IMG/VR virus record: IMGVR_UViG_3300042549_005813
DNA from: a virus
DNA: 64,000 nt
Direction: 5' to 3' (one strand)
Below, in pieces: positions 5,248-52,073 of the stretch (positions are counted from its first letter, which is position 1; each line of letters begins with the position of its first letter). The notes beneath the pieces are model-generated. The model was not told where the DNA came from. It ran no database searches and saw nothing but the letters and a program-made list of their open reading frames with translations. The translations under genes were made by a program, and so were the position numbers.

Positions 5248-5724
5248 ATGGACGAATACGGTTATAATAAATTCGAAGAATATTTAATTAAAATATTAAA
5301 AAATAGGACTGAGGTTCTAGAACCAGAAATTGGTGATAACATTTCTCCTATTTCTGAAATCAAAGTTGCATTTGATGGTTATGGTGATTTAGAAACTGAA
5401 GATGCCAATGGTGACTACGAATACGTAGAACACGGTAATACAAACCTAGAATCATATGCAATCTATATTCATAAAGATTCTGCAAAACGTGGTTTTGTTT
5501 TTCCTGAACACGATACACATTCTTTCACATTTGGTAATATGGTGCAACACCGTCCAGATGAAGAAGTTTGTTTGTTTGCATGGCATGAGTTTCTTGAAGA
5601 AGAAGATGCTTGGCGTTGGTATGTCATTCCTTTGGAAGACAGGCTGGCAGAAGACAATTCATTGACAGCAGAACAAGTTATGGAAATCTTAGAAGTAGTT
5701 GTTAACAGATATTTTATTGAATAA
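5248..5724 (+). CDS. acidic hypothetical protein
   Basis: GAGG RBS, ORF track, coupled to the next gene. Confidence 0.65.
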   Translation: MDEYGYNKFEEYLIKILKNRTEVLEPEIGDNISPISEIKVAFDGYGDLETEDANGDYEYVEHGNTNLESYAIYIHKDSAKRGFVFPEHDTHSFTFGNMVQHRPDEEVCLFAWHEFLEEEDAWRWYVIPLEDRLAEDNSLTAEQVMEILEVVVNRYFIE

Positions 5725-6935
5725 TGTTTTTCATACATAAAACAGTTAGTCTTTGTAATCATTGTTATAAACATATACCAGGAATTGTATATGAAAATGA
5801 TAAAGAAATTTTAATGGCCAAAAAATGTCCGCAACATGGTATTATGCATAGTGTTGTAGAAACAGATGTTGAATTTTATTACGGTATTGAACATTTTCAA
5901 GAAATGTATGAGGACCTAAAAGAAAAATTACCAATATCAAATTCATCTGTCAATCAAATTTTATTTGAAGCTAGTGATAGGTGTCAATTAGAATGTCCAC
6001 ATTGTTATCATTTACCTGATAATAAAATCACAGATAGAAAAATAGAAGATATCATAAAACAAATTGATGGTTTTCCAAAAACTGGTATTCCTATGTTGGC
6101 TGGAGCTGAGGCTACATTGAGGCCGGATTTTTTTGATTTGTGTAAACAAATAGACTCTTTGGGTTTTGAACAATTTGAATTATTATCAAACGGATTGAAA
6201 TTTAGTAGTGCTGATTGGACGAAAAAGATATTTCAATCTGGACTTAAAAGCGTATGCGTAGGATTAAATCACAGTAGTTATCAAGGATTAAAAGTACATA
6301 ATAAACAACTTCGTGGTTTAAACAACATATTAGAATATGGTGTTGGTTGTGGTTATGTCGGTTATACTATAGAGAGTTACGAACATTTACCTGAAATATT
6401 AAATGAAATAAGATTATTGGCTAATCCAAAAATAGACCATTTCAGAATTCGTTGTGGTAGTTTTATTGGAAGAAGTTCGGATAAGGAACGTTCTTATTTG
6501 AGTAAAATGATTAAGTACATCAAAAACATTCTTGGAGATGAAATCTCAATATCTAAATCAGATAATAATCCTTATCATATCATGATGAATTGGAAGGGAA
6601 TTGATTTACGTTTAATACAATGGCCGGATGTTACTAATATAGATATGGAAGAACTTGATGTTGGACCTTGGTGTCAGTTCTATCGTGGACCAATTACAAA
6701 TTTTGTACACCAAGTTATCACAAGAGATGCTTACAAAAATATGGGACTACCTCAATTGGATGTCGTACCTGAAAAATATACATACAAATATAAACCAATG
6801 CAATATTGGAAAGACGAATGGTTTAAGCCAATAAAAATTAAAGAAAGTGATTTGATTAATGATGTTCAAATGTGGGATTTGAAAAATATTGGTGTTGATT
6901 TAAAACCTTCAATAATACCAATAAAGAAAAACTAA
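5724..6935 (+). CDS. radical SAM protein with N-terminal CxxC...CxxHG metal-binding domain (MJ0619/Tes-like architecture)
   Basis: CQLECPHC (CX3CX2C), GAEATL, LSNG; N-terminal SLCNHC...KKCPQHG. Confidence 0.85.
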   Translation: MFFIHKTVSLCNHCYKHIPGIVYENDKEILMAKKCPQHGIMHSVVETDVEFYYGIEHFQEMYEDLKEKLPISNSSVNQILFEASDRCQLECPHCYHLPDNKITDRKIEDIIKQIDGFPKTGIPMLAGAEATLRPDFFDLCKQIDSLGFEQFELLSNGLKFSSADWTKKIFQSGLKSVCVGLNHSSYQGLKVHNKQLRGLNNILEYGVGCGYVGYTIESYEHLPEILNEIRLLANPKIDHFRIRCGSFIGRSSDKERSYLSKMIKYIKNILGDEISISKSDNNPYHIMMNWKGIDLRLIQWPDVTNIDMEELDVGPWCQFYRGPITNFVHQVITRDAYKNMGLPQLDVVPEKYTYKYKPMQYWKDEWFKPIKIKESDLINDVQMWDLKNIGVDLKPSIIPIKKN

Positions 6936-8903: not shown

Positions 8904-9182
8904 ATGACACAGAGATATTTTGTTGTTGCAGGTAACTATGACCAATATTGCCAATGGATAAAAGAGAGAGGCCTTTCACGTAAAGAGTGGGTCCATGTAT
9001 ACGATTGCAATACTATCAGAGGTATCAGAAACCCTACAGGCAGACTCGTTGGTACTTGGTATGAAAGAGAGGATGCTATGGATATTCTGGTGGCTCTGAG
9101 AGTGGCATCAGATAAGGTCAATGAGAACCTTGAGAATGCCTTAGTAATGTGGATACAATTGAAAACTGAAAATGAAACATAG
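8904..9182 (+). CDS. hypothetical protein
   Basis: AGGAG RBS, ORF track. Confidence 0.65.
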   Translation: MTQRYFVVAGNYDQYCQWIKERGLSRKEWVHVYDCNTIRGIRNPTGRLVGTWYEREDAMDILVALRVASDKVNENLENALVMWIQLKTENET

Positions 9183-9357
9183 TGACGTACAGAGAATTAT
9201 AGAGAACCTTGAGAATGCTTTGAGAGTGCATCCAGATAAAGGCTATGAGATTGGTTCATTAGAAGAATCACAGAAATTTGCAGAGGAGCGAAAGCTGGAC
9301 CTGGAAAAATTCCCGGTATCAAGAGGATCCTCCGAGAAAAAATTTCGAAACCCTTAA
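9172..9357 (+). CDS. hypothetical protein
   Basis: ORF track; last gene of the + block. Confidence 0.5.
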   Translation: MKHSDVQRIIENLENALRVHPDKGYEIGSLEESQKFAEERKLDLEKFPVSRGSSEKKFRNP

Positions 9358-9483
9358 CGGGGCCCCAGAAAATAAAAAATGAGAAAAAAGAGTTTGACCA
9401 GGTGGCACTTTTTTAGCTAATCACTTACCTACCGCACCCCCATCCCTCACCGCTACTGCTCGGACAGCAGCTCCAGCAGAGCC

Positions 9484-9518
9484 AAAAAAAGAGGCAGCAC
9501 CATTACAGCACTGCCTCT
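9484..9518 (-). terminator. intrinsic terminator for the minus-strand block
   Basis: AGAGGCAG...CTGCCTCT stem preceded on + by an A run (U tract on -). Confidence 0.65.
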
Positions 9519-9563
9519 AAACCCCACCATCCAGCCTAGCCTCAAGTGGGGAGAGCGAAAACC

Positions 9564-10211
9564 TTAAGCAGCCACTGCCAACCGAATAACTTTTGCCATT
9601 TTGCGGCCGTGGGCAATATATGCAACCACTGGGACCTCTTTAGAATAGCAAGCACGGCAACCAGAGCACTTGCCATTTGTAGTTGGTGCCGTGCAAACCT
9701 TAACACCAGCAGGCACCGGCATACCTTCTGGCAATATAGTGCTACCATGTACACCAGCAGTATATGTGCCATTTATAGCATCACTGCTAGGGCGCACCAT
9801 CACATTAGGCAGAGCAGCCATTTTGGTGAGCACCTGCTGATACTTAGCGAATTTGTGCATCCGTGTGGGCAACCAGTGCTTCACGTGGGGGGTCTTAACC
9901 ATCACAGCATACATTTTGAGCGCTAACTGTATGGAGTACATATCGCCAGAATCAAACCAGCGGAAGTAGCTTTGCTTTTTGAGAGCAGCAACCATTGTAT
10001 CCACCCAAGCATCATCCTGCCATGCTTGCTTATTATCGAAGCGCACTTTTTTGGTGCCAGGGAAATTATATGTGCCTTGCGTGGCGTAGCAACCAGCACA
10101 AGCGGGAACGAGCTCACCATCCGCACCAATAGAACCTTGGCAGGTTTCGAGAGCCTGAAGGGACCAGCTGAGGATATTGTCGAGCTTTGAGGTTTTGGAT
10201 AATTTGTTCAT
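9564..10211 (-). CDS. Gp88-like Cys-rich (Fe-S / radical-SAM-like) phage protein
   Basis: SWSL.A..TC.G...CAGCYA..G.Y, YFRWFDSGD, HWLPT, C...CSGCRAC. Confidence 0.75.
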   Translation of the reverse strand: MNKLSKTSKLDNILSWSLQALETCQGSIGADGELVPACAGCYATQGTYNFPGTKKVRFDNKQAWQDDAWVDTMVAALKKQSYFRWFDSGDMYSIQLALKMYAVMVKTPHVKHWLPTRMHKFAKYQQVLTKMAALPNVMVRPSSDAINGTYTAGVHGSTILPEGMPVPAGVKVCTAPTTNGKCSGCRACYSKEVPVVAYIAHGRKMAKVIRLAVAA

Positions 10212-10241
10212 TTCGCTTTGCTTTCTTGATTTGATGGAAGG

Positions 10242-10307
10242 AGTATAACACGGCCACCGAAAATGGCAACCTAATACTTTTTAACTCAAGCCACCAGCTG
10301 GAGTATT
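10242..10307 (-). promoter_or_regulatory. early sigma70 promoter (TTGCCA-16-TATACT) with upstream AATACT/AGTATT element
   Basis: -35 at 10264-10269, -10 at 10242-10247 on the minus strand. Confidence 0.75.
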
Positions 10308-10417
10308 AACTCGGCACCTCTAGTGCAAGCACCAGCACAAGCGCTTGCCACCGACAGCACGGCGGTGTTATAATATGCGCCGACCAAAGAACCAGTCACA
10401 AAAATGAATACATTCAT
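10286..10417 (-). CDS. small hydrophobic peptide (43 aa, MNVFIFVTGSLVGAYYNTAVLSVASACAGACTRGAELILQLVA)
   Basis: AGGAG 5 nt upstream of ATG; below the ORF-track size cutoff. Confidence 0.55.
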   Translation of the reverse strand: MNVFIFVTGSLVGAYYNTAVLSVASACAGACTRGAELILQLVA

Positions 10418-10571
10418 ACTAACTCCTAAATTGTTAACTTTTGTTTTCAAATACTGTGCCAGTAATTTTCCAACTGGCGGCCTCTGGGATCCGATCCCTT
10501 TGCCTTACACTCGAGCGCCGGTGTTGGCACCGGCTTTTGGTGTTGCTGCGTTCCTCGCAGCACCCGAATGG

Positions 10572-10907
10572 TTACGCTGTTGCTTTGCGAGCCATGATGG
10601 CAGCAGCAATAGCATTGTCCTCAGCACCGAACACCACGCCTTTGCTTGGGCGCTTGTTGGCTTTCACTGCCTTAGCGCCTACAGCACCAACTTGCTTAGC
10701 AAGCAGCTTCTCAAGGCGAGCTTGTGCCTTAGCGATAGCGGCTTCACGCTTTTCAGCAGCAGCCTTCAGTTTAGCGTCAGCAGCAAGACCACGCAAAGCC
10801 TTTTTGGTTTCAACCTCGAGCTTAATTGACGCCTTGAGCGCCTTCAGGGTCTCACGCTTTTGAGTGAGAGTTAAACCTTCAACCGAACCACATGCGAATG
10901 TAAACAT
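10572..10907 (-). CDS. Ala/Lys-rich basic (histone-like) protein
   Basis: AAAGGA RBS, own promoter, strongly K/A-biased composition. Confidence 0.7.
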   Translation of the reverse strand: MFTFACGSVEGLTLTQKRETLKALKASIKLEVETKKALRGLAADAKLKAAAEKREAAIAKAQARLEKLLAKQVGAVGAKAVKANKRPSKGVVFGAEDNAIAAAIMARKATA

Positions 10908-10940
10908 TTTTTTCCTTTGTTTGTTTGTTTGTAAGAGTCA

Positions 10941-10968
10941 ATTATACCAGATTTGGTGAAAATGGCAA
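10941..10968 (-). promoter_or_regulatory. early sigma70 promoter TTGCCA-16-TATAAT
   Basis: direct match on the minus strand. Confidence 0.8.
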
Positions 10969-11001
10969 CTGTAAACTTTTTTCTTCCAGTTGCCTGTAGT
11001 G

Positions 11002-11259
11002 TTATTCTGTGGTCAATTCATCCAACAGGCGGCCGGCCGCTTCACGCTGGTCCTGTATTTCGCAAAGGATGAATTTAGCACGGTTCATATATTGGCGGGA
11101 ATCATTGGTTGCACCCATCGCCAGCAATTCCTGAGCGTCCGACAATATGCTCATGCACACCATTTCCAGACCAACGTGCTTGGCAGTAAAGCTTTTCATA
11201 TACTGCTCACGGATCGCTGCTGTTGACATACCGTAGCACTGCTTTTCGAATTCGGTCAT
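11002..11259 (-). CDS. hypothetical protein (MTEFEKQCYGMS...)
   Basis: downstream of a promoter; leader similar to that of 9564-10211. Confidence 0.65.
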   Translation of the reverse strand: MTEFEKQCYGMSTAAIREQYMKSFTAKHVGLEMVCMSILSDAQELLAMGATNDSRQYMNRAKFILCEIQDQREAAGRLLDELTTE

Positions 11260-32727: not shown

Positions 32728-33492
32728 ATGGTTACCAAAAAAACAACAGCCAGATACGCAGCGGAACAGTTACAAGATGATGAGAATAAGACAAGGCATC
32801 AACCAGCAGTAAACAATTCATTGAGAATTAAACCAGACCATCTAAAGACGTTTGATCCACTAACAGAAAATCAAAGATTATTCTTTGAGATGTATAAAGG
32901 CGGTGCCTACTTTATGGGACTATTTGGTAGTCCTGGGGTAGGCAAAACTTTTTTGGCACTATATAAATCATTAGAAGAAGTATTAGACAAGTCCAATTCA
33001 TTCAAACAAGTAGTAGTTGTAAGGTCACTTGTGCAATTACGTGACGTTGGTTATTTACCAGGCAATCTTGAAGAAAAACAAGAAATCTATGAATTACCTT
33101 ACAAAGAGATTGCGGCCACATTATTTGGTCGTTCCGATGCATGGGATAGATTAAAGGAACAAAATCATGTACGATTTATTTCTACTACTGCCATTCGTGG
33201 TATTTCTATTGATGATGCTATTATTATAGTTGATGAAAATCAGAATTTGAATTGGTCAGAAGTAAATACAATTATCACCCGTGTTGGACATAGGTCCAAA
33301 ATCATATTTTCAGGTGATTTTAAACAAACTGATTTGATTAAGAGTAACAAAGACCAAACAGCATTCCATAGTTTCTTGGAAGTGGCACGTAAGATGCCGT
33401 CCTTTCAAGAAATATACTTTACACCAGACGATATTGTTCGTTCCAGTTTAGTTAAACAATGGATTGTGGCCTGTGAAGACCTAGGTTACTAA
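32728..33492 (+). CDS. phoH: PhoH-like ATPase
   Basis: PLT.NQ, GSPGVGKT, G.LPG...EK, IRG, IVDENQN, ITRVG, GD..Q.D, DIVRS. Confidence 0.92.
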   Translation: MVTKKTTARYAAEQLQDDENKTRHQPAVNNSLRIKPDHLKTFDPLTENQRLFFEMYKGGAYFMGLFGSPGVGKTFLALYKSLEEVLDKSNSFKQVVVVRSLVQLRDVGYLPGNLEEKQEIYELPYKEIAATLFGRSDAWDRLKEQNHVRFISTTAIRGISIDDAIIIVDENQNLNWSEVNTIITRVGHRSKIIFSGDFKQTDLIKSNKDQTAFHSFLEVARKMPSFQEIYFTPDDIVRSSLVKQWIVACEDLGY

Positions 33493-33531
33493 GATAAATA
33501 CTATTCCAAACTAAGATAAATACTATTCCAA
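33488..33531 (+). repeat. 22 bp perfect tandem duplication containing a late-promoter-like ATAAATA
   Basis: ACTAAGATAAATACTATTCCAA x2. Confidence 0.92.
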
Positions 33532-33548: not shown

Positions 33549-35000
33549 ATGATTTTTGAAATTGAAGCCACACGATTTGAAGATGGTGATAAAAGAGTTT
33601 TTCACTATGACAATATGGCTAATGTGTTGAAAGATTCTGATGGTAATGTGTTTGAATATCCGGCAGACCAAATGCCACAACATTCTTTGAAACCTTACAA
33701 ACCATTTGACAAGAATCGTCCACTAAAAAAATCAAAATTAATCAGCCATTTGAAGATTCAGATGGGGTTGAGTTGTAACTATTCTTGTGATTATTGTTCA
33801 CAGAAGTTTGTTGAACGCCAACCAGAAACCTCTAAAAAAGATATTGATGTTTTTATGGAGAAATTAGATAATCTTCATTTTGATGAAGATGTTGGTTTAA
33901 GAGTTGAATTTTGGGGTGGTGAACCACTTGTTTATTGGAAAACAATGAAGCCATTGGCTGAGGCCATTGCAGAAAAATTTGACAGTTGGAAAACTAAACC
34001 TATTTTTAGTATCATTACAAATGGTTCTATTTTAACTGATGAAATTATTGATTGGTTAATGATGATGGATTTTGCTGTGTCAATTTCACATGATGGACCG
34101 GGTCAATTTGTACGTGGTCCTGATCCTTTTGATGATCCAGAACAAAAAGAACGTATACTTGGATTCTATCGCATGATGACAAAACTAGGTAAAAGTTTCA
34201 GTTTCAATGCAATGTTGAATGCTAAGAACCAAAGTAGAAAAGAAATCTATGATTGGTTTGTAAATCTCACAGGAGATGAAAATGTTATTATTGGTGAAGG
34301 TTCAATGGTTGATGCCTATGATGAAGAAGGTATTTCGTATTCACTAATCACAAAACAAGAACATTTTGATTTTAGACAGAAGGCTTTTGGTGAGTTATAT
34401 GCTTCTGATGGTAAAATTGGTTTCTTGCCTCAGCTGGGTAAAATTGATGATTTAATGGCCTCAATTTTGAGTCATAGAGAATCTAAATATTTAGGTCAAA
34501 AATGTGGTATGGACGATGAACATACAATTTCAGTTGACCTACGTGGTAATGTGATGACCTGTCAGAACGTAAGTTCTTTGGAAATCTCAAAGAATGGTGA
34601 ATCGCACCATGGTGGTACATTGGATAATTATTCAAATGTTGAATTAAAATCTGTCACACATTGGTCAAATCGTAAAGAGTGTCCAGAATGTCCAGTGTTA
34701 CATATATGTAAAGGTGCATGTATGTTCTTGGATGAAAAATATTGGGATATCTCATGTGCAAATGCATATTCAGATAATGTGGCCTTGTTCGCAGCTGCTT
34801 TCACTGTGATGACAAATGGTTATATACCAACTTTGATTAAGAGTGATACTTTACCATTAGATAGACAAGACATTTTTGGTACGATTTTTGAACATAATGA
34901 AGAAAATAAGAAAAAAATCATACCAATCAAGGTAGTTAAAGAGATTATTGGAACTGTTGATGATGTTGCGGTATATGGCAAATCTCGTTTGGAAACCTAA
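33549..35000 (+). CDS. radical SAM / SPASM-domain maturase
   Basis: CNYSCDYC; FWGGEPL; TNG; ISHDG; SPASM C-X13-G-X4-C...CPECPVLHICKGAC...C. Confidence 0.92.
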   Translation: MIFEIEATRFEDGDKRVFHYDNMANVLKDSDGNVFEYPADQMPQHSLKPYKPFDKNRPLKKSKLISHLKIQMGLSCNYSCDYCSQKFVERQPETSKKDIDVFMEKLDNLHFDEDVGLRVEFWGGEPLVYWKTMKPLAEAIAEKFDSWKTKPIFSIITNGSILTDEIIDWLMMMDFAVSISHDGPGQFVRGPDPFDDPEQKERILGFYRMMTKLGKSFSFNAMLNAKNQSRKEIYDWFVNLTGDENVIIGEGSMVDAYDEEGISYSLITKQEHFDFRQKAFGELYASDGKIGFLPQLGKIDDLMASILSHRESKYLGQKCGMDDEHTISVDLRGNVMTCQNVSSLEISKNGESHHGGTLDNYSNVELKSVTHWSNRKECPECPVLHICKGACMFLDEKYWDISCANAYSDNVALFAAAFTVMTNGYIPTLIKSDTLPLDRQDIFGTIFEHNEENKKKIIPIKVVKEIIGTVDDVAVYGKSRLET

Positions 35001-35034: not shown

Positions 35035-35991
35035 ATGGCAACACCAGATATAAACAGTTCAATTGCAATTTCTCAAATTAATACTGAGGTTGGTAGAGCT
35101 GCAACCACAGCAAGTACGAGCTTAAACTTTTTAAATGGATTTTTGAAACCTGCTGGCACATTGGTGTTGAATCCCGGTGGTACAGTATCAACACCTAGTC
35201 CACAAAGGCAGTCAAATCCACAGAATATGAACGTATATCGTGGTGGTTTAACTCATTACCAAAAAAATAATGGTGGCAATTGTAATAATGTAAACAATAA
35301 AGAACAGAATTGTAGTGTTTCTGGTTCTTCAAGTATTCAATGTAATGCAACAAATAACTGCACTGCAATTAACTGTGCTAATTGTGATACACAAAAATGG
35401 TTACAAAGCGGAAATTGCCAATTGGCAACCACACCAGTATACAACTGCACGAACAACCAAAATTGTTTCACCTATAATTGTAATTGTTCTAAAATTATTT
35501 GTACCAAGTTGTTTGATTTGGGATTGATGAAGAAAAACATTTTTGTGGCTGACCAAGCATTTGGTGAACAATTAAAGAAAACACATCCGGATATATACAA
35601 TGGTTATCGTGCATGGGCTGAGATTGTTGTTGATTGGATGGACGGTAAAGGACCTAAGATGATGCCTTGGATGTCCGATGAAGATTTTAGTGTTGCTGCA
35701 AAAAAGTGGTCTATCACATGGGCACATGATATTGCAACACCTTGGGCTGAAGAAATGGCCTATATGATGGGTGAAAAAGAAACTGGTAGTTTGACTGGTA
35801 AAATGATGTTTGCATTTGGTACACCAATCTGTAAAGTTATTGGTGTGTGGCAACGCTGGTTTGGACCAAGTAAGAAAGAACCCGGTTTTATTAAAGGTGC
35901 GGGCCTTGTTGTAATTTTTGTTATGTTCAAATTGGTTGCTGAACTTGGACGTTTTATTGAAAAATTTATTCCAAAGAAGAAGGTTGCATAA
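35035..35991 (+). CDS. Asn-Cys repeat protein: virion-like N-terminus, Cys-rich core, KIICT C-terminal domain with TM anchor; putative modification substrate
   Basis: 11 Cys in ~70 aa, 10 preceded by Asn; preceded by CTAAATA at 34997. Confidence 0.8.
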   Translation: MATPDINSSIAISQINTEVGRAATTASTSLNFLNGFLKPAGTLVLNPGGTVSTPSPQRQSNPQNMNVYRGGLTHYQKNNGGNCNNVNNKEQNCSVSGSSSIQCNATNNCTAINCANCDTQKWLQSGNCQLATTPVYNCTNNQNCFTYNCNCSKIICTKLFDLGLMKKNIFVADQAFGEQLKKTHPDIYNGYRAWAEIVVDWMDGKGPKMMPWMSDEDFSVAAKKWSITWAHDIATPWAEEMAYMMGEKETGSLTGKMMFAFGTPICKVIGVWQRWFGPSKKEPGFIKGAGLVVIFVMFKLVAELGRFIEKFIPKKKVA

Positions 35992-36284
35992 TGCCAACAT
36001 ATTCCATTAAAAGACCGGTTAAAATTTTAACGGATGATAGTGCAAAATATGTTGATGAACATATGACTTTTTTCTTTAATACATTCAGTTCAAATGCGTT
36101 TAATGCTTTAAACAAAGAAAAAAAGGAACGTGTTTATAAAGCACTAACTTACCATGAAAACATATTAATTAAGTTGTTTGGAAATTCGTTGTTAAAGAGT
36201 GATGTTTTTCTCCCAGAATTATTAAGAAATTCAGTAGATGTAATACAAGTTCATGAATATAAAGAATGGTTGGATAAACAATGA
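35991..36284 (+). CDS. hypothetical protein (paralogue of the next gene)
   Basis: TAATG coupling; L..E.K......E..L..LF...E.KEW..KQ shared. Confidence 0.7.
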   Translation: MPTYSIKRPVKILTDDSAKYVDEHMTFFFNTFSSNAFNALNKEKKERVYKALTYHENILIKLFGNSLLKSDVFLPELLRNSVDVIQVHEYKEWLDKQ

Positions 36285-36661
36285 AAAAATATTCTTACAC
36301 ATATTTTCCGACCATAAAAACTTATGAAGGTGATAATATATTATTGGATACTAAAGTTATTTCAGATTTTTTAAAAAAAACTTTTATGGAAAGAATTTTA
36401 AATTTAACTGAAGAAGAAAAAAATGAATATTTTACTGTAGCTTATGAGTATGAAGATGTATTGACGGAACTTTTTGATTCTCAAGTAGAAAAAGTGGTAC
36501 AAGCTAATTGGACAATGGATCCATTATACAGAAATCCAATAGAAGAATATGAAAATTATGTATCATTACCAAAAGATGAGGATTTAACAGATGAGGAACA
36601 TGAGTTGAAATTACAAGTATTAAAAGAATTTAAAGAATGGTTTGAAAAACAAAACTATTGA
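36281..36661 (+). CDS. hypothetical protein (paralogue of the previous gene)
   Basis: ATGA overlap. Confidence 0.7.
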   Translation: MKKYSYTYFPTIKTYEGDNILLDTKVISDFLKKTFMERILNLTEEEKNEYFTVAYEYEDVLTELFDSQVEKVVQANWTMDPLYRNPIEEYENYVSLPKDEDLTDEEHELKLQVLKEFKEWFEKQNY

Positions 36662-36670
36662 TTTTTTATT

Positions 36671-37378
36671 ATGACACAAAATATTATGACAAGAGAAGAC
36701 AGAGAAAAATACCATTGGTATCAAAATGCACAGAACATGTTTTGGCAAAGTCCAATTTGGGAAGTACAAACACGTTTTGATGAAGAATTTAATGAAACTC
36801 TGTTAGATGAAATTTATGGTATCGGCAAAGATATCGTATTGGGTAAAGACAAAGACCCAAACAACAGTATATGGGACTACAGTAGACCCAACTTAGATAT
36901 ACTTAAACAAGAAATTATAGACATTGTAACCAAGAAAATTGTGCAAAATATTCCACAACTCAGAATGTTAAATATTCGTGGTTGTGAACACTTCATGGGT
37001 TGGGTCAATGTGCGTGAACCAGGAGAACGCTTAGAGGTGCATGGACACACCGAATCTGCTATCGCAGCAACGTATTACATAAAGGCTAAAGAAGGTTGTG
37101 GTGACCTTGTGGCGTTTGATTCTGCACAAGCAATTGATTGGTTAAATAATACTCTAAGTAACACACCAAAATTGCGAGAACGTAGGTTTAAACCAGTTGA
37201 AGGTAGATTGATATTTTTTCCATCATATGTTTTGCATGGCGTTGATGAAAATAAATCTGATGATTTACGCATTTCATTGTCAACCGACCTAAGAAAAGTT
37301 GTAGACAAAAATGCACAGAATACGGTAATTTTAAAATCGTGGGCTGGCCGCATGGCAAAAATTAGAGAATGGAAATAA
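36671..37378 (+). CDS. putative 2OG-Fe(II) oxygenase (TIGR02466-like)
   Basis: WVN..PG....HGH...A.YY, P.EG.LIFFPSY..H.V..N.S...RIS.S. Confidence 0.85.
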   Translation: MTQNIMTREDREKYHWYQNAQNMFWQSPIWEVQTRFDEEFNETLLDEIYGIGKDIVLGKDKDPNNSIWDYSRPNLDILKQEIIDIVTKKIVQNIPQLRMLNIRGCEHFMGWVNVREPGERLEVHGHTESAIAATYYIKAKEGCGDLVAFDSAQAIDWLNNTLSNTPKLRERRFKPVEGRLIFFPSYVLHGVDENKSDDLRISLSTDLRKVVDKNAQNTVILKSWAGRMAKIREWK

Positions 37379-37908
37379 TGTTTACAAAACTGGAAACAAA
37401 TTTTGAAAAACCATTATATGCAGTTACCGACCCACTAAAAAATTTCAAACATGAAGGTAAAGGTATCGACTATAAAAAGATATGGTCACCTGAGGCTGAC
37501 AAAATATATGGTGTGATACCAAAAAGGTACTGGCAGGATTTTCACTTGACAGTAATGACGATTGACTGTATAATCCCACCACATACGGATACGGAAATTA
37601 TTACTTCAATCAACTTTTACCTACAAACAGAAAGTTGTACAACTACATTCTATAGACCAAAAGTTGGTAATCCACGAACATTGCAGGTGGATAATCAAAC
37701 CGATGGGTATATATATTTTGAAGAAGATTTGATTGAAGTTGGTAGTTTTGTTGCTAAAGATTATGAGATTTGGTTACTTGATGTAAGTCAAATACATGGC
37801 GTTAAAGGTGAATTCAATTTACGTAAAGCCATTACCTTAGGAACTTTTGTTCATAAGTATGAGGATGTACTAGAGATGCTAAAGGAAACCAATAATGTCG
37901 TTTGTTAA
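37378..37908 (+). CDS. cupin / Fe(II)-2OG oxygenase-like protein
   Basis: IPPHTD...SINFY...LLDV.QIHGV...R. Confidence 0.75.
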   Translation: MFTKLETNFEKPLYAVTDPLKNFKHEGKGIDYKKIWSPEADKIYGVIPKRYWQDFHLTVMTIDCIIPPHTDTEIITSINFYLQTESCTTTFYRPKVGNPRTLQVDNQTDGYIYFEEDLIEVGSFVAKDYEIWLLDVSQIHGVKGEFNLRKAITLGTFVHKYEDVLEMLKETNNVVC

Positions 37909-38563
37909 ATTGAAACACACATATGAATATATGCCACACACAATCATACCACAAGGTCGAGCAGATTCATTTGCCGGCAAATATGGATTAGGTGTAAGAC
38001 ATAATACAATTTGGACACCAGAACCAGAAAAAGAAGTATTGTATAAGGTTGTACCGGAAAGATATTGGAAAGATTTTCAAGTAACCAGAATGTCAATTAA
38101 TAGTTTATTGTTACCACACGTTGATAATGACTTCATAACAACAATCAATTTTTATTATGACCCACAAAATTATAGAACGGTCTTTTTCAGAGCAAAACTA
38201 GGAGCAAATTCTTGGAAAACAGAAGAAGATAGACACTATGATGTGTCTGTAAATATGAAAGATGAAAAAGTTAATGTTGAAGAATTAAAAACTAGAGTTA
38301 AAGAGTTTGTGTCTGAAAAACAAAATATGCCAACATGTGAAGAAATAACATATGTTGATGCTGTATATACTTTTGATGATGTATATGAAATTGGATCTTT
38401 TATTGCTCAACCTAGTGAAGCATATTTGTTAGATGTGAGAATACCACATAATGTTGAACCATTAGGCGGCGAAGCAAAACTTAGAAAGGCATTTGCACTT
38501 AGAACTAAATTGTATGATTATGGCCAAGTGTATGAAATGTTACAAGAAACTGGAAACTTATAA
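37895..38563 (+). CDS. cupin / Fe(II)-2OG oxygenase-like protein (paralogue)
   Basis: LLPHVD...TINFY...LLDV.IPHNV...R. Confidence 0.75.
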   Translation: MSFVKLKHTYEYMPHTIIPQGRADSFAGKYGLGVRHNTIWTPEPEKEVLYKVVPERYWKDFQVTRMSINSLLLPHVDNDFITTINFYYDPQNYRTVFFRAKLGANSWKTEEDRHYDVSVNMKDEKVNVEELKTRVKEFVSEKQNMPTCEEITYVDAVYTFDDVYEIGSFIAQPSEAYLLDVRIPHNVEPLGGEAKLRKAFALRTKLYDYGQVYEMLQETGNL

Positions 38564-38573
38564 AGGATAATAA

Positions 38574-39368
38574 ATGTTTTTCGAAAAATTAGACTATACA
38601 GTAGATATTGAAAAATTAAAACAAGAAGTGAGAGAAAGTGTTTTCACTTTAGGTGACCAAGTTATACAAGGTGAAGAATATGAAACTCCAAAATACAATG
38701 GTTTTGGTGGTTGGAGTTTAATGTGTAAAGAAGCTACATGGACTGGCGGTTGGGAAGCTGTTCAACTGGAAAAAGGACAAACACTAGAATCCTTTTTACC
38801 AACAAATGAACTGGTACTAAAAGCTTACAAATACTTTAATATTTCTCATGGATTAGAACATGATAAACCAACTGAAGCTTATGTTGGTGAAATTAAAAAA
38901 GTAATGGACGACATTCGTGAAATGGGTTTTTATCCAACCAGAGTTAGGGTTACTTGTTTAAAAGCACACTCAAAAAGTTTGGTGCATAGAGATGCTGAAG
39001 AAACAGAATATATGGCACGTATTCATATTCCATTATTTACGAATAAAAAGTGTGTGCATATTTGTCAAGGTAAAAACTTACATATGCCAGCAGATGGTGG
39101 TGTTTGGATGCTTTGGGTGAATCAATGGCACCAAATTAGAAATGATTCGGATGAGGATAGATATCATATCATCATGGATGCTTATGATACAAAAAAAGTA
39201 ACAAAATTCTTTAATTATGCCGGTGATTTTGAACAATTACAGGATTACGTCAGAGGATTCCGAGAAAAAATTGATGAGGTTGAATTAACCGATGAAGATA
39301 TTGATTTTTTTGAGGCAATTAGAGAACGATATGTTACCAAAAAAGTTAGAGATAATGAATTTATTTAA
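38574..39368 (+). CDS. aspartyl/asparaginyl beta-hydroxylase-like oxygenase
   Basis: R.R...L......HRD...RIHIPL.TN...H.PADG...N..H...N.S..DRYH. Confidence 0.8.
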   Translation: MFFEKLDYTVDIEKLKQEVRESVFTLGDQVIQGEEYETPKYNGFGGWSLMCKEATWTGGWEAVQLEKGQTLESFLPTNELVLKAYKYFNISHGLEHDKPTEAYVGEIKKVMDDIREMGFYPTRVRVTCLKAHSKSLVHRDAEETEYMARIHIPLFTNKKCVHICQGKNLHMPADGGVWMLWVNQWHQIRNDSDEDRYHIIMDAYDTKKVTKFFNYAGDFEQLQDYVRGFREKIDEVELTDEDIDFFEAIRERYVTKKVRDNEFI

Positions 39369-39371
39369 ATT

Positions 39372-40886
39372 ATGACAGATACACATGGAATTATTTTCAC
39401 CGGCATGGAGAGGACTAGAACAATTAGTCGACCAGCTGGTGCAGCAAGATTAAGAACAGTTTTAGACCAACATGGTTACAACGTTGAAGTTGTTGACTAT
39501 TTTGGTAATTTCACAGATGAAGAACTTGAAACAATCTGCGCTAGATTTATTGGACCAAAAACTTTGTTTGTTGGTATTAGTATTACATTCATCTATGCAT
39601 TTGATAAATTAAATAAAATATTCAAACACGTTAAAGAAAAATATCCACACGTAAAAACGCTGATTGGTGGCAATGAAACACCAATTGATGGTGTAGATTT
39701 GACTCAAGTTGATAGGGTGTTTTGGGGTTATGCTGAAGAAGCGGTATTACACTATCTAAAATTTTTAACCAAGAAACGTTTAGATGATTTAAAATGGGTG
39801 CCATACAGAGATACACTTTCTATCAATGCAGAAATGGCATATAAGAATGATGATACGGATTTATCTATTAAGTGGTTAGAGAGTGATTTAATCAAAAATA
39901 ATTTTTTGCCTATTGAAATTAGTAGAGGATGTATTTTTAGGTGTAGATTCTGTGCATTCCCTTTGTTAGGTAAAAAGAAGAATGATTACATTCGTCATGT
40001 GGATAATTTGGCAGATGAATTTCGTAGAAATTATGAATTGTTTGGTGTTAACAACTATTGGTTCAATGATGATACATTTAACGACAACGTGGTCAAATTG
40101 GATTATGTTGCTGAGGCAATCGCCAAGAGTGGTGTTAAGATAACTTACACAGCATTTTTACGTGCAGATTTGATTGAGAGATTTCCTGAAACTATTTCTA
40201 TGTTGGCTGATACTGGTTTGGTTGCTGCAACATTTGGTTTGGAAACTTTTCATCCAGAAGCGAAGAAAGCAATTGGAAAAGGCCTAGATAATGAGAGACA
40301 GTTTGAAGCAATTCGACAATTAAAAAAATATAAACCAATCTACACATATACGGGTATGATATGTGGTTTGCCTGGTGAACCTATATCGAGTGTTTACAAA
40401 AGTCAAAAGATATTGTTGGAACAAAATTTTGAAGTGTTTGATAATTGGGATTGGTGGCCTTTGTTAATTAGAAAAGGTTCTGTAAGTCGCCTAAGTGAAT
40501 TTGAAAAGGAATGTGGAAAGTGGGGTTACACTGAAATGTCACCCGATGAATATACAATTTCAAAAGAGGATGATGATATGAGATATGGTGGAGATAGTGG
40601 TATAATGGCTTGGAAAAGTAAATACTCTAATTACTTTACGGCAAGAATCATTACAGCATTGTTGAATAATGAAACAGAGGAGCATCGTATTGCTGCTGGT
40701 AAATCCATTTATGGAAATGCCAACAAAGGTGTTAGTATTAACCATGATGTATTTGAATTGGTTGGTATGGGTATTGATATAAAAGATATTATTGACGGAA
40801 CATTTGATAAAACTTTTTTGAATAAAAAAATTGAAGAAGCGGATCAAACTATCCTTGAATACAAAAAATTAAAGTTAGGATTATAA
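39372..40886 (+). CDS. B12-binding-type (class B) radical SAM protein
   Basis: N-terminal RPAGA..L...L...GY.V.V.D...GIS..F...IGG; EISRGCIFRCRFC; DDTFND; FGLET; I.GLPGE. Confidence 0.85.
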   Translation: MTDTHGIIFTGMERTRTISRPAGAARLRTVLDQHGYNVEVVDYFGNFTDEELETICARFIGPKTLFVGISITFIYAFDKLNKIFKHVKEKYPHVKTLIGGNETPIDGVDLTQVDRVFWGYAEEAVLHYLKFLTKKRLDDLKWVPYRDTLSINAEMAYKNDDTDLSIKWLESDLIKNNFLPIEISRGCIFRCRFCAFPLLGKKKNDYIRHVDNLADEFRRNYELFGVNNYWFNDDTFNDNVVKLDYVAEAIAKSGVKITYTAFLRADLIERFPETISMLADTGLVAATFGLETFHPEAKKAIGKGLDNERQFEAIRQLKKYKPIYTYTGMICGLPGEPISSVYKSQKILLEQNFEVFDNWDWWPLLIRKGSVSRLSEFEKECGKWGYTEMSPDEYTISKEDDDMRYGGDSGIMAWKSKYSNYFTARIITALLNNETEEHRIAAGKSIYGNANKGVSINHDVFELVGMGIDIKDIIDGTFDKTFLNKKIEEADQTILEYKKLKLGL

Positions 40887-41545: not shown

Positions 41546-41578
41546 CATGATATTGCGGTTGTGTTACAATAATAAATA
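41542..41578 (+). promoter_or_regulatory. tandem sigma70 (TTGACA-17-TACAAT) and late-type (ATAAATA) promoters for the tmRNA
   Basis: -35 at 41542, -10 at 41565, ATAAATA at 41572. Confidence 0.7.
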
Positions 41579-41581
41579 ATG

Positions 41582-41878
41582 TTATGGTTGTATGAAGCAA
41601 CTAGAAATGTGTTCTGGACGGGGGTGCGAATCCCCCCAGGTCCACCATAAGCATATTAGTGGTCTTGAAACCCACAATTCATAGTTAAGTCTATGTGCTA
41701 GTATGCTTCTGATGGGCCTGCATAGTTTCGACAGGGCAAATAGTACAGAAGTGGACAGCTCATCAGAGAAGATGTTAAAACTAAATCAAAGTAAACGCAA
41801 ACGACTCACAGTTCGCATTGGCAGCCTAAACGCTGACTAGGGTTTCGGTTGGTTTCCTCGTAACAGAATAACCAACCA
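41582..41878 (+). ncRNA. ssrA: circularly permuted two-piece tmRNA, tag (A)ANDSQFALAA
   Basis: T arm GGGGG-TGCGAAT-CCCCC plus CAGGTCC-A-CCA (ends 41647) precedes the 5' acceptor GGGCCTG (41714) with G3:U70; tag frame 41797-41829; outer ends approximate. Confidence 0.9.
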
Positions 41879-41890
41879 CTTAATGGAGGT

Positions 41891-42472
41891 ATGATGCAGT
41901 CAATTTGGTGTAGGAATGAAATTAAAATCGCTGATGAATTGATGGAATTGGCACCAAAATTACGTGATGAATTTTTAGAATATCATAAAGACTTTCACAC
42001 CACATTTAAAGGCGGTGTATCATATGCTGCATCAAACCCACATGCTGTTTTGGATGAAAAAGAAAAGAATGATTGGAAGGTTGAAGGACTACGTTATGCA
42101 TTACCTGAACAAAAGGTTGAACATAATTTCTTTTTACAACCAAGAATACGCAACATATTTCCAACCGCATCAACGCTAACACAACAGTATATTGCTCACA
42201 TTGGTTGTAGTGGTTACAGTGTACTAGAATCAGGTGGTGTTATTAAAAGTCATGTAGACATTGAGAATCGTTCACGCAACACAGTAAGAATTCATATACC
42301 ATTAATCATACCAGAAGGTGATGTTGCACTGGAAGTTAATGGTATAAAGCAGGATTGGTCCGACTTATTTGCATTTGATAATGCTGAATTGCATAGTGCA
42401 TATAATAAGACTGATAAAAGGAGACTAATTTATATCATAGATATATCTAAGTCGATTTTGTTTAACAACTAG
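41891..42472 (+). CDS. aspartyl/asparaginyl beta-hydroxylase-like oxygenase
   Basis: YSVL..G..I..HVD...RIHIPL.IP, FAFD....HSAYN....R. Confidence 0.85.
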   Translation: MMQSIWCRNEIKIADELMELAPKLRDEFLEYHKDFHTTFKGGVSYAASNPHAVLDEKEKNDWKVEGLRYALPEQKVEHNFFLQPRIRNIFPTASTLTQQYIAHIGCSGYSVLESGGVIKSHVDIENRSRNTVRIHIPLIIPEGDVALEVNGIKQDWSDLFAFDNAELHSAYNKTDKRRLIYIIDISKSILFNN

Positions 42473-51638: not shown

Positions 51639-52073
51639 TTACAGTCCAAGATGGTCTTCCGTTATTAACTTGAACTCCCAACCTCTATCCAAACAATATT
51701 CTGTTGCAGCCTTCCATTTGGCTTGATTGACACCCCATGTGACAACCTCTTGTATGTATTGTTTCGTAACACGTTTCTTCTTTTCAGGTTCCATTGTTTG
51801 ATATTTTGGTTTTACTTCAAGCATCATCGTTCTTGTTTGCCCATTTTTGTCCTTAACTTTAACAACAAAGTCTGGAAAGTATCGGTGCATACGATTATCA
51901 ACTGGTGATTTGTATGGAATTATCAATTCTTCTGAGGCCCAAGACACAATACTTGGATTTTTGTCGAGCCAATTCATCACTCGACATTCCCATGATGAGC
52001 GATATATAATGTTTTTGTGGTCTCCCATGTATTTTTGGGGATTTGAGGGTCGAAACGTTCCTGAATATGCCAT
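51639..52073 (-). CDS. gp4: head completion nuclease gp4
   Basis: P.NP.KY.GD...I.YRSSWE, W.SEE..IPY.SP.D...HRYFPDF, EVKP..QT, NQAKW.AA. Confidence 0.93.
   Translation of the reverse strand: MAYSGTFRPSNPQKYMGDHKNIIYRSSWECRVMNWLDKNPSIVSWASEELIIPYKSPVDNRMHRYFPDFVVKVKDKNGQTRTMMLEVKPKYQTMEPEKKKRVTKQYIQEVVTWGVNQAKWKAATEYCLDRGWEFKLITEDHLGL

Follow-up and report, generated by a model that had tools for sequence, protein, structure and literature searches.

The 64,000-nucleotide stretch of viral DNA analysed here (hereafter 'the window') is part of an 87-kb IMG/VR record, IMGVR_UViG_3300042549_005813, from a marine T4-like myovirus; rIIA, phoH and genes for the baseplate wedge are present, and in close relatives gp59 and gp32 are found nearby. 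The window contains a gene for a 318-amino-acid (318-aa) protein, P0001, in which a Cys-rich core with Asn before nearly every Cys (the Asn-Cys, or NC, core) is followed by a helical C-terminal domain named after its first residues, KIICT. The gene directly upstream encodes a radical S-adenosylmethionine (radical-SAM) enzyme with a SPASM domain. The features of these two genes are as follows.

33549..35000, + strand: radical-SAM/SPASM enzyme, 483 aa, presumed maturase of the product of the next gene; match to PF04055 above cut-off
35035..35991 including stop codon, + strand: P0001, 318 aa, translated open reading frame (ORF)
35035..35268, + strand: N-terminal domain (N-domain), residues 1-78, with the motif I-x-V-S-D-I-N-T-E-x-G ... 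L-N-F-L-N conserved in alignments
35275..35490, + strand: Asn-Cys core, spanning residues 81-152 and holding 11 Cys (10 as NC); C-x5-C-x4-C-x1-2-C is duplicated within it
35491..35988, + strand: KIICT C-terminal helical domain, residues 153-318; all helical, an independent module
35884..35940, + strand: terminal hydrophobic helix, residues 284-302, with a basic tail after the helix

Sequence comparisons divide P0001 into two evolutionary units

An initial annotation of this DNA, made from the sequence alone, described P0001 as a three-part enzyme substrate with an Asn-Cys core. Translation confirms that Asn directly precedes 10 of the 11 core Cys residues (the exception is IQC103), and ten or more NC dipeptides were obtained in 0 of 100,000 shuffles of the 75-residue core stretch. 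A search of 5.8 billion proteins yielded 519 relatives of P0001, with marine and freshwater metagenomes as the source, the full-length relatives extending down to 44% identity. Alignment of homologues, a check that the initial annotation had proposed, shows that the NC pattern is conserved: among 96 relatives, Asn precedes 84.5% of core Cys residues (the remainder mostly follow Gln, Asp or Ala), and the preceding residue is Asn, Asp or Gln in 95% of cases. The Cys columns themselves are invariant (C83, C117, C138 and C149), conserved at 98-99% (most others) or conserved at about 85% (C93 and C114), and their conserved spacing, ...5,4,2,(9-10),9,5,4,1,4, reveals the internal duplication. The number of Cys residues per homologue ranges from 10 to 17 and is odd in about 40% of sequences. 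N-x-S/T sequons (NCS, NCT) are present, but most NC pairs are not followed by Ser or Thr.

The sequence switches to KIICT at residue 153. That this change is abrupt, as originally described, is confirmed both by the junction CSKIICTKL, which is invariant in a 24-sequence sample, and by an AlphaFold2 model computed with the homologue alignment, in which residues 153-311 are all helical with a predicted local distance difference test score (pLDDT) of about 90; the pLDDT of the N-domain is 65-80. The terminal hydrophobic helix also holds up, with a Kyte-Doolittle 19-residue mean of 2.0 over residues 284-302, and KKK follows it. No N-terminal signal peptide is seen in the P0001 sequence.

The proposed likeness of the N-terminus to phage adhesins and fibre tips was not reproduced. 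No part of the protein could be assigned to a family in Pfam, PHROGs or NCBIfam, a result unchanged when 24 members were searched at E ≤ 1; when 50,697 phage records were searched by tblastn with residues 1-80, chance matches alone came back; and the sole match of the whole protein in cultured phages is to the KIICT domain of SynMITS9220M01 gp028. A profile of the N-domain matches only proteins with a long NC core, including prophage copies without KIICT (L094, 5.5e-15; L093, 3e-7; L140, 5e-8, the last at an internal position). The N-terminus of the Gly-type protein P0104 is similar by eye but was rejected as a relative: the N-domain profile misses Gly-type proteins. Because the N-domain and the core always travel together, P0001 is, as judged from these comparisons, composed of two evolutionary units, not three: that is, N-domain plus core (residues 1-152) and KIICT (residues 153-318).

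The adjacent radical-SAM/SPASM enzyme very probably acts on the Asn-Cys core

The enzyme contains the cluster motif CNYSCDYC (CxxxCxxC), with C76, C80 and C83 invariant in the enzyme alignment, and a complete seven-Cys SPASM set including CxxCx5Cx3C (C319, C338, C378, C381, C387, C391 and C403), which is invariant down to 44% identity. Its best NCBIfam matches are the PapB, CcpM, QhpD, SCIFF and anSME maturases, all below their cut-offs (in bits against cut-off, 79/340 for PapB NF047865, 51/425 for SCIFF TIGR03974 and 70/500 for CcpM TIGR04068), and its PDB matches are 8vpo, CteB (5wgg) and anSME (4k36).

We compared 80 IMG/VR loci against the cassette proteins, taking as evaluable those with upstream DNA present. 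The enzyme gene adjoins, directly upstream, a gene for N-domain plus Cys core in 59 of 59 evaluable loci (a count that includes three pattern-search misses judged by eye) and stands beside a KIICT protein with a different N-terminal part in 0 of 19 loci. Two KIICT proteins without the N-domain have a related enzyme a few kb away; these are the sole such cases, and both carry a NCNCNCNC run just before KIICT. In NC-core loci the enzyme is better conserved than the substrate (64-98% vs. 37-92% identity), and in two metagenomic contigs with homologues at 51% and 44% identity the flanking genes are different and the block is kept. Enzyme identity also tracks substrate type, being 55-98% with long cores and 35-48% with short terminal runs (below). 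Since the co-occurrence is perfect both here and in distant phages and prophages, we conclude that the SPASM enzyme very probably has the Asn-Cys core as its substrate.

Homologous enzymes accompany (N/D)C runs of proteins that resemble tail fibres

Two cultured phages, Achromobacter phage JWF and Ralstonia phage RSP15, encode 44% identical enzyme homologues, and each of them does so within its tail-fibre module. In JWF, the gp36-like tail-fibre protein gp028 (L088 3811-5262), encoded two genes before the enzyme, ends ...RQNCNCDCNCNCSC and leads straight into a Hint (intein-like) domain; an excerpt of the C-terminal run before that domain reads ...NCNCDCNCNCSC. A scan with the enzyme alignment of one genome per prokaryotic species gave 80 loci at 35-70% identity, mostly from Burkholderiales and prophage-like. 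A same-strand ORF with a run of Asn-Cys or Asp-Cys pairs, (N/D)C, is present in 64 of these 80 bacterial loci, at a median of 1.5 kb upstream of the enzyme, and in 59 of the 64 the run is the very C-terminus of its protein. Most of the run-less loci (12/16) have less than 1.8 kb of upstream DNA, and control loci totalling 342 kb contain only 4 ORFs that fit the (N/D)C-run pattern. Many of 16 run-bearing proteins examined start with the N-terminal motif of JWF gp028, and one has collagen repeats; proteins that end in short NC runs are 120-620 aa long and tail-fibre-like in appearance.

The long form of the substrate has the same setting. A Paraburkholderia prophage encodes a 151-aa protein that is 51% identical to the core over 83 residues (E 3e-13) and is also matched by the N-domain profile; its gene is flanked on one side by a 'long tail fibre distal subunit'-type gene and on the other by the enzyme gene, with further fibre genes downstream. 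In another genome, N-domain plus core form the C-terminal part of a 402-aa protein. The occurrence of homologues in tail-fibre operons, together with (N/D)C-ended fibre proteins beside the same enzyme family, argues that the product is most likely a fibre-associated virion part and not a secreted peptide. The link to the virion suggested in the initial annotation is thus retained through these homologues, but not through the N-terminal adhesin likeness on which it had been based.

Two further observations concern these modules. A run of the form NCNC(D/N)C followed immediately by a Hint domain (C-FPAGT...) is found, with a homologous radical-SAM gene near, in JWF gp028, in L109 (Burkholderia paludis MSh1) and in L100; self-cleavage of such Hint domains would make the Cys run the C-terminus of the fibre. 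In RSP15, ORF046 (L089 5162-5992), just upstream of the radical-SAM homologue, has an H-K-D motif and a later His, and resembles 2-oxoglutarate (2OG)/AspH-type enzymes.

KIICT and a small partner gene form a separate two-gene unit

Two small genes follow P0001.

35991..36284, + strand: KIICT partner, small helical protein, 97 aa, with a start that overlaps the P0001 stop codon; matches the partner profile (6e-4)
36281..36661, + strand: second small ORF, 126 aa; weakly paralogous to the 97-aa ORF (BLASTP E 0.001, shared E(Y/F)KEW end)

Against 1.84 billion representatives, a KIICT profile matches at least 1,334 clusters (50% identity) at E ≤ 1e-3, and the domain is almost always C-terminal, in proteins of 150-1,860 aa. 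In 120 long relatives, KIICT ends the protein in 118, the distance from IIC to the end is 143-175 aa, the 16 residues preceding KIICT are 42% Gly (a poly-Gly linker), and an NC run is present in none. The fusion partners of KIICT are Gly_rich_2, DUF4815, Laminin_G, PA14 and LCCL; in phages, members of the DUF4815-like PHROG family carry annotations as virion structural, baseplate or tail proteins (PMC8341000). The SynMITS9220M01 gp028 gene follows a 'fiber protein' gene, and its product has a Gly-rich region and a poly-Pro/poly-Arg spacer before GSIICKNL....

The initial annotation had taken KIICT to be a sorting or anchoring module analogous to CFI-box-CTERM. That KIICT is a separate C-terminal module stands. 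However, no CFI-box-CTERM, PEP-CTERM or other sorting-signal model in NCBIfam or Pfam matches P0001; and although the terminal helix has a median Kyte-Doolittle value of 1.87 in 118 long KIICT relatives, the domain stops after about 115 residues in its more distant members and the hydrophobic helix is lacking there, so that membrane anchoring is not the core function of the domain. What is conserved is a folded domain of 115-165 aa.

A partner profile built from the small ORFs that follow Gly-type KIICT genes also matches ORFs that follow NC-type genes (6e-12 to 5e-7) and, as the sole match among the 299 ORFs of the window, the 97-aa ORF. The small helical partner ORF usually overlaps the stop codon of the KIICT gene. 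The 126-aa ORF is not matched by the partner profile and is absent from several cassettes. Because the partner profile is shared by Gly-type and NC-type genes, we conclude that KIICT and its partner are a two-gene unit independent of the radical-SAM system; most likely KIICT is a chaperone-assisted assembly or anchoring module.

Structure searches did not place the domain in a known fold. A Foldseek search of PDB with the AlphaFold2 model gave nothing at E ≤ 0.001; fold searches of BFVD and the ESM Atlas gave the domain's own family only, plus a GP38 row at a template-modelling (TM) score of 0.25-0.32; and an ESM Atlas feature search gave viral clusters without names, under 0.9. NEL E3-ligase domains (VIA-align wide, best Z 5.9) were rejected because helical bundles have a stated noise level above this score. 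Interpretation as an intein, split or not, was rejected as well: KIICT is helical, has no Hint motifs and no Hint match in Pfam in 24 members, and in the Gly_rich_2 protein P0356 (L170 17-1105) a Hint domain ending ...IVHN-C lies directly before GGGGS-IICTKL, at the KIICT junction, so that Hint and KIICT are two distinct domains. KIICT resembles the Hint and Peptidase_S74 modules of fibres in that it directly follows the functional end of a fibre-type protein and has an invariant Cys at its start, and Hint domains follow NC runs in phage JWF, B. paludis and L100; unlike them, it is all-helical and matches no Hint or S74 model. Cleavage at KIICT is a candidate at most, hinted at by analogy with (N/D)C runs, which mostly form the end of their protein, and with JWF-type proteins, in which the run is succeeded by a self-cleaving Hint domain.

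In three loci (L004 10001-12518, L059 about 9001-11160, and L079) the KIICT gene is directly followed by a separate ORF starting M-A-(D)-GGGGGG. This layout reads as if KIICT had inserted into, and split, a Gly-rich fibre gene.

Oxygenase and B12 radical-SAM genes complete the cassette

The co-oriented block comprises, in order, the radical-SAM/SPASM gene, the 318-aa gene, the two small ORFs, a PF13759 oxygenase, two H-x-D paralogues, an AspH-like oxygenase and a B12 radical-SAM enzyme. The features not yet listed are as follows.

33490..33531, + strand: exact tandem 22-bp repeat (CTAAGATAAATACTATTCCAA-like) with the T4-late-promoter-like motif ATAAATACTATT, situated between phoH and the radical-SAM gene
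36671..37378, + strand: 2OG-Fe(II) oxygenase, PF13759, present in most NC-type cassettes
37369..38563, + strand: pair of paralogues encoding 179 and 222 aa (34% identical, E 1e-33), with H-x-D followed later by His
38574..39368, + strand: AspH-like Fe(II)/2OG oxygenase, 264 aa; PF05118, E 5.9e-9, 36.4 bits vs. a cut-off of 22.6
39372..40886, + strand: B12-binding radical-SAM enzyme, 504 aa, optional cassette member; PF02310 and PF04055

The 179- and 222-aa paralogues have no match in Pfam, PHROGs or NCBIfam, and a 179-aa-like gene is found in most cassettes. In the AspH-like enzyme, H138-x-D140, H186 and H198 are invariant in 11 homologues, and of the 53 NC-type loci whose downstream DNA is long enough, 52 have the gene. 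The closest NCBIfam models to the B12 radical-SAM enzyme are PhpK-type models and C-methyltransferases of RiPPs (peptides made on ribosomes and then modified post-translationally), below cut-off, and the gene is absent from more distant cassettes. The smallest cassettes consist of enzyme, substrate, small ORF and AspH. Late transcription is hinted at by the tandem ATAAATACTATT before the enzyme gene and by a copy of the motif, with a single mismatch, ahead of the tail/baseplate block at 52072, but the motif count does not exceed chance.

Two related genes lie outside the cassette: a second AspH/LpxO-like oxygenase of 193 aa (41891-42472, +), kept near the cassette in many related loci, and a further radical-SAM-like gene encoding 403 aa (phrog_27238; 5724-6935, +).

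A proposal: cross-linking of a fibre-associated virion part

According to the proposal that we favour, the radical-SAM/SPASM enzyme, whose gene lies directly upstream, would have residues 1-152 as its dedicated protein substrate and, in the cytoplasm, would turn Cys thiols into carbon-sulfur (thioether) cross-links. The acceptors would most plausibly be the beta-carbons of the neighbouring Asn and Asp residues, which stand in 1:1 alternation with Cys. Both residues are known beta-carbon acceptors of Cys thioethers in NxxcA and freyrasin (PMC8326336); because of this precedent and the 1:1 ratio, Cys-Asx thioethers are the most economical guess, and formylglycine or alpha-carbon links may be alternative products. 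Hydroxyl and methyl groups would be added by the AspH-like enzyme together with the remaining Fe(II)/2OG oxygenases and, in cassettes that have it, the B12 radical-SAM enzyme; since they are kept as a block, these enzymes probably decorate the same core in the marine clade. The end product would be a rigid, redox-insensitive knot, and P0001 would probably be an enzymatically modified virion part. KIICT (residues 153-318) would be an independent C-terminal module of many adhesin- or fibre-type phage proteins, attached after a flexible linker and accompanied by its partner gene, and would be uninvolved in the radical-SAM step. Taken as a whole (a radical-SAM-modified N-domain plus core in a fibre-associated virion part, and an independent KIICT module), we regard this proposal as fairly probable.

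Several points weigh against it. The formation of thioethers is inferred from the class of the enzyme and the motif. In the AlphaFold2 model the core has a pLDDT below 45 and is disordered without ligands, and so lends no structural support. The cassette lies between phoH and an exonuclease gene, outside the tail-fibre module. No NC-run gene was found within 6 kb of the homologous enzyme in RSP15, where the oxygenase-like/radical-SAM pair may act on a different fibre substrate. Radical-SAM enzymes are oxygen-sensitive, and oxygenases need O2. Finally, the AspH-like gene is absent from 79 of the 80 bacterial loci of the (N/D)C-run scan, so that hydroxylation of NC is not general; as far as gene neighbourhoods indicate, the AspH-like oxygenase goes only with the marine clade that has the long core and KIICT, and not with (N/D)C runs generally. 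Of the earlier suggestion that NC is a recognition motif common to the SPASM and AspH-like enzymes, the SPASM half is supported by co-occurrence and the AspH half is opposed by this distribution.

We weighed three other explanations. P0001 could be a tail-anchored inner-membrane protein of the infected cell, for example one with a role in superinfection exclusion or another envelope-directed function, and not part of the virion. In favour of this, the terminal helix, with its Kyte-Doolittle value of 2.0 and its basic flanks, is conserved in the close family, the cassette lies among early/auxiliary-type genes, and AspH/LpxO-type and B12 radical-SAM enzymes act on lipids too. Against it, the helix is missing from more distant KIICT domains, the fusion partners of KIICT are of adhesin or virion-structural type (DUF4815 (PMC8341000), Laminin_G, PA14), KIICT occurs in fibre gene clusters, and late-promoter-like motifs precede the cassette. 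On this evidence a membrane protein is unlikely.

The second explanation is that the core is an unmodified, disulfide-knotted or metal-binding (metallothionein-like, CxC) domain and that the neighbouring enzymes act on something else. Perfect co-occurrence with one enzyme clade across distant phages and prophages, with enzyme similarity tracking substrate type, argues against this, as do the odd number of Cys residues in about 40% of homologues and the synthesis of the protein in the reducing cytoplasm without a signal peptide. For it speak a Cys content of 18% with CxC and CxxxxC spacings, the disorder of the modelled core without ligands and a weak LRV_FeS match in Pfam (E 0.14); in phage T4, moreover, the fibre tips of gp37 and gp12 bind metal ions. 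We consider this explanation rather improbable.

Improbable, finally, is a RiPP-type precursor, in which the N-domain would be a leader, the core would be cut at KIICT and released as a bioactive (antimicrobial or signal) peptide and KIICT would be a follower or export module: the RiPP-like enzyme set (radical-SAM/SPASM, B12 radical-SAM, oxygenases), the CSKIICTKL junction, invariant in the 24 sequences sampled, and the Hint self-cleaving domains at the same position in other phages would fit it, but the conserved cassette contains no protease or exporter by Pfam, PHROGs or NCBIfam, N-domain plus core are fused to the end of a 402-aa protein, short runs end tail-fibre-like proteins of 120-620 aa, prophage copies lie inside tail-fibre operons, and KIICT occurs on hundreds of non-Cys proteins without maturases.

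Comparison with known systems

The proposed modification of a fibre-associated protein is closest to two known systems. As in the ranthipeptides (PapB/PapA freyrasin, NxxcB/NxxcA, CteB/SCIFF), a radical-SAM/SPASM gene adjoins that of a Cys-rich substrate in which Cys is 1:1 with Asp/Asn-type residues, PapB being the enzyme's best NCBIfam match and CteB (5wgg) a PDB match. Unlike in the ranthipeptides, the enzyme scores far under the family cut-offs (79 bits vs. 340 for PapB), the substrate is a 318-aa multidomain protein with a 166-aa folded follower domain and not a leader-core peptide of 40-60 aa, the motif is adjacent (N/D)C and not CxxxD or NxxC, and the system is phage-encoded, with extra oxygenases and a B12 radical-SAM enzyme. 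The radical-SAM/SPASM enzyme QhpD makes several intraprotein Cys-to-Asp/Glu thioethers in the protein subunit QhpC, which is not a secreted peptide. The phage system is like it in pairing a radical-SAM/SPASM enzyme with a protein-subunit substrate, and the phage enzyme matches TIGR03906 at E 9e-18; however, this match is below cut-off and limited to the radical-SAM core, a quinone cofactor context is lacking, and the substrate differs in sequence. By analogy, the phage system would work like ranthipeptide or QhpC maturation without membership in those families, because the enzyme falls under every NCBIfam cut-off and the substrate is neither a short leader-core peptide nor an epidermal growth factor (EGF) domain.

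Two further comparisons concern the other cassette genes. As with AspH and EGF-like domains, an enzyme of the PF05118 Asp/Asn beta-hydroxylase family is paired with a Cys-rich, Asn-rich substrate candidate; unlike there, the phage enzyme has an H-x-D motif and a later invariant His, the pairing is limited to one clade, and the EGF-type AspH consensus C-x-[DN]-x4-[FY]-x-C-x-C is present in 0 of 95 homologues. As with T-even gp38-type adhesins and fibre assembly pairs, a small protein gene comes right after a distal tail-fibre gene in a prophage homologue, and a fibre-type KIICT gene is followed by a small coupled gene. For gp38 itself, the hidden Markov model (PF05268) gives no match, no sequence relation is seen, and the fold row in the Atlas is weak (TM 0.25-0.32).

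Implications

Known targets of radical-SAM cross-linking are small peptides that are secreted and one subunit of a bacterial enzyme. In the 8.4 million papers and preprints searched we found no description of a phage radical-SAM/SPASM enzyme with a tail-fibre or Cys-repeat system; one cyanophage paper merely labels a radical-SAM maturase an 'antibiotic synthesis' gene. New in the window are the long substrate form made of N-domain plus core, accompanied by its oxygenase/B12 set, and KIICT together with its partner. If the proposal is true, RiPP-type chemistry would act on phage structural or host-recognition proteins, as a new enzymatic maturation step in virion assembly that provides covalent, enzyme-made stabilisation of the host-recognition apparatus; this would also give a reason for the many radical-SAM and 2OG-oxygenase genes, of unassigned role, in oceanic T4-like phages. 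Adjacent (N/D)C would be a new substrate motif for enzymology and protein engineering, and KIICT with its partner gene is a large undescribed family that marks the ends of many phage adhesins. As a tentative generalisation, which we hold to be possible, many phages, from marine T4-like phages to Burkholderiales prophages, might weld (N/D)C runs at their fibre tips into thioether knots by means of a private radical-SAM/SPASM enzyme, with the marine clade adding Asn/Asp hydroxylation, methylation, and KIICT with a chaperone-like partner for the assembly or attachment of hundreds of adhesins.

Just after the cassette and the exonuclease gene, ARAGORN predicts a permuted (two-piece) transfer-messenger RNA at 41555-41920 (+), with the tag ANDSQFALAA.

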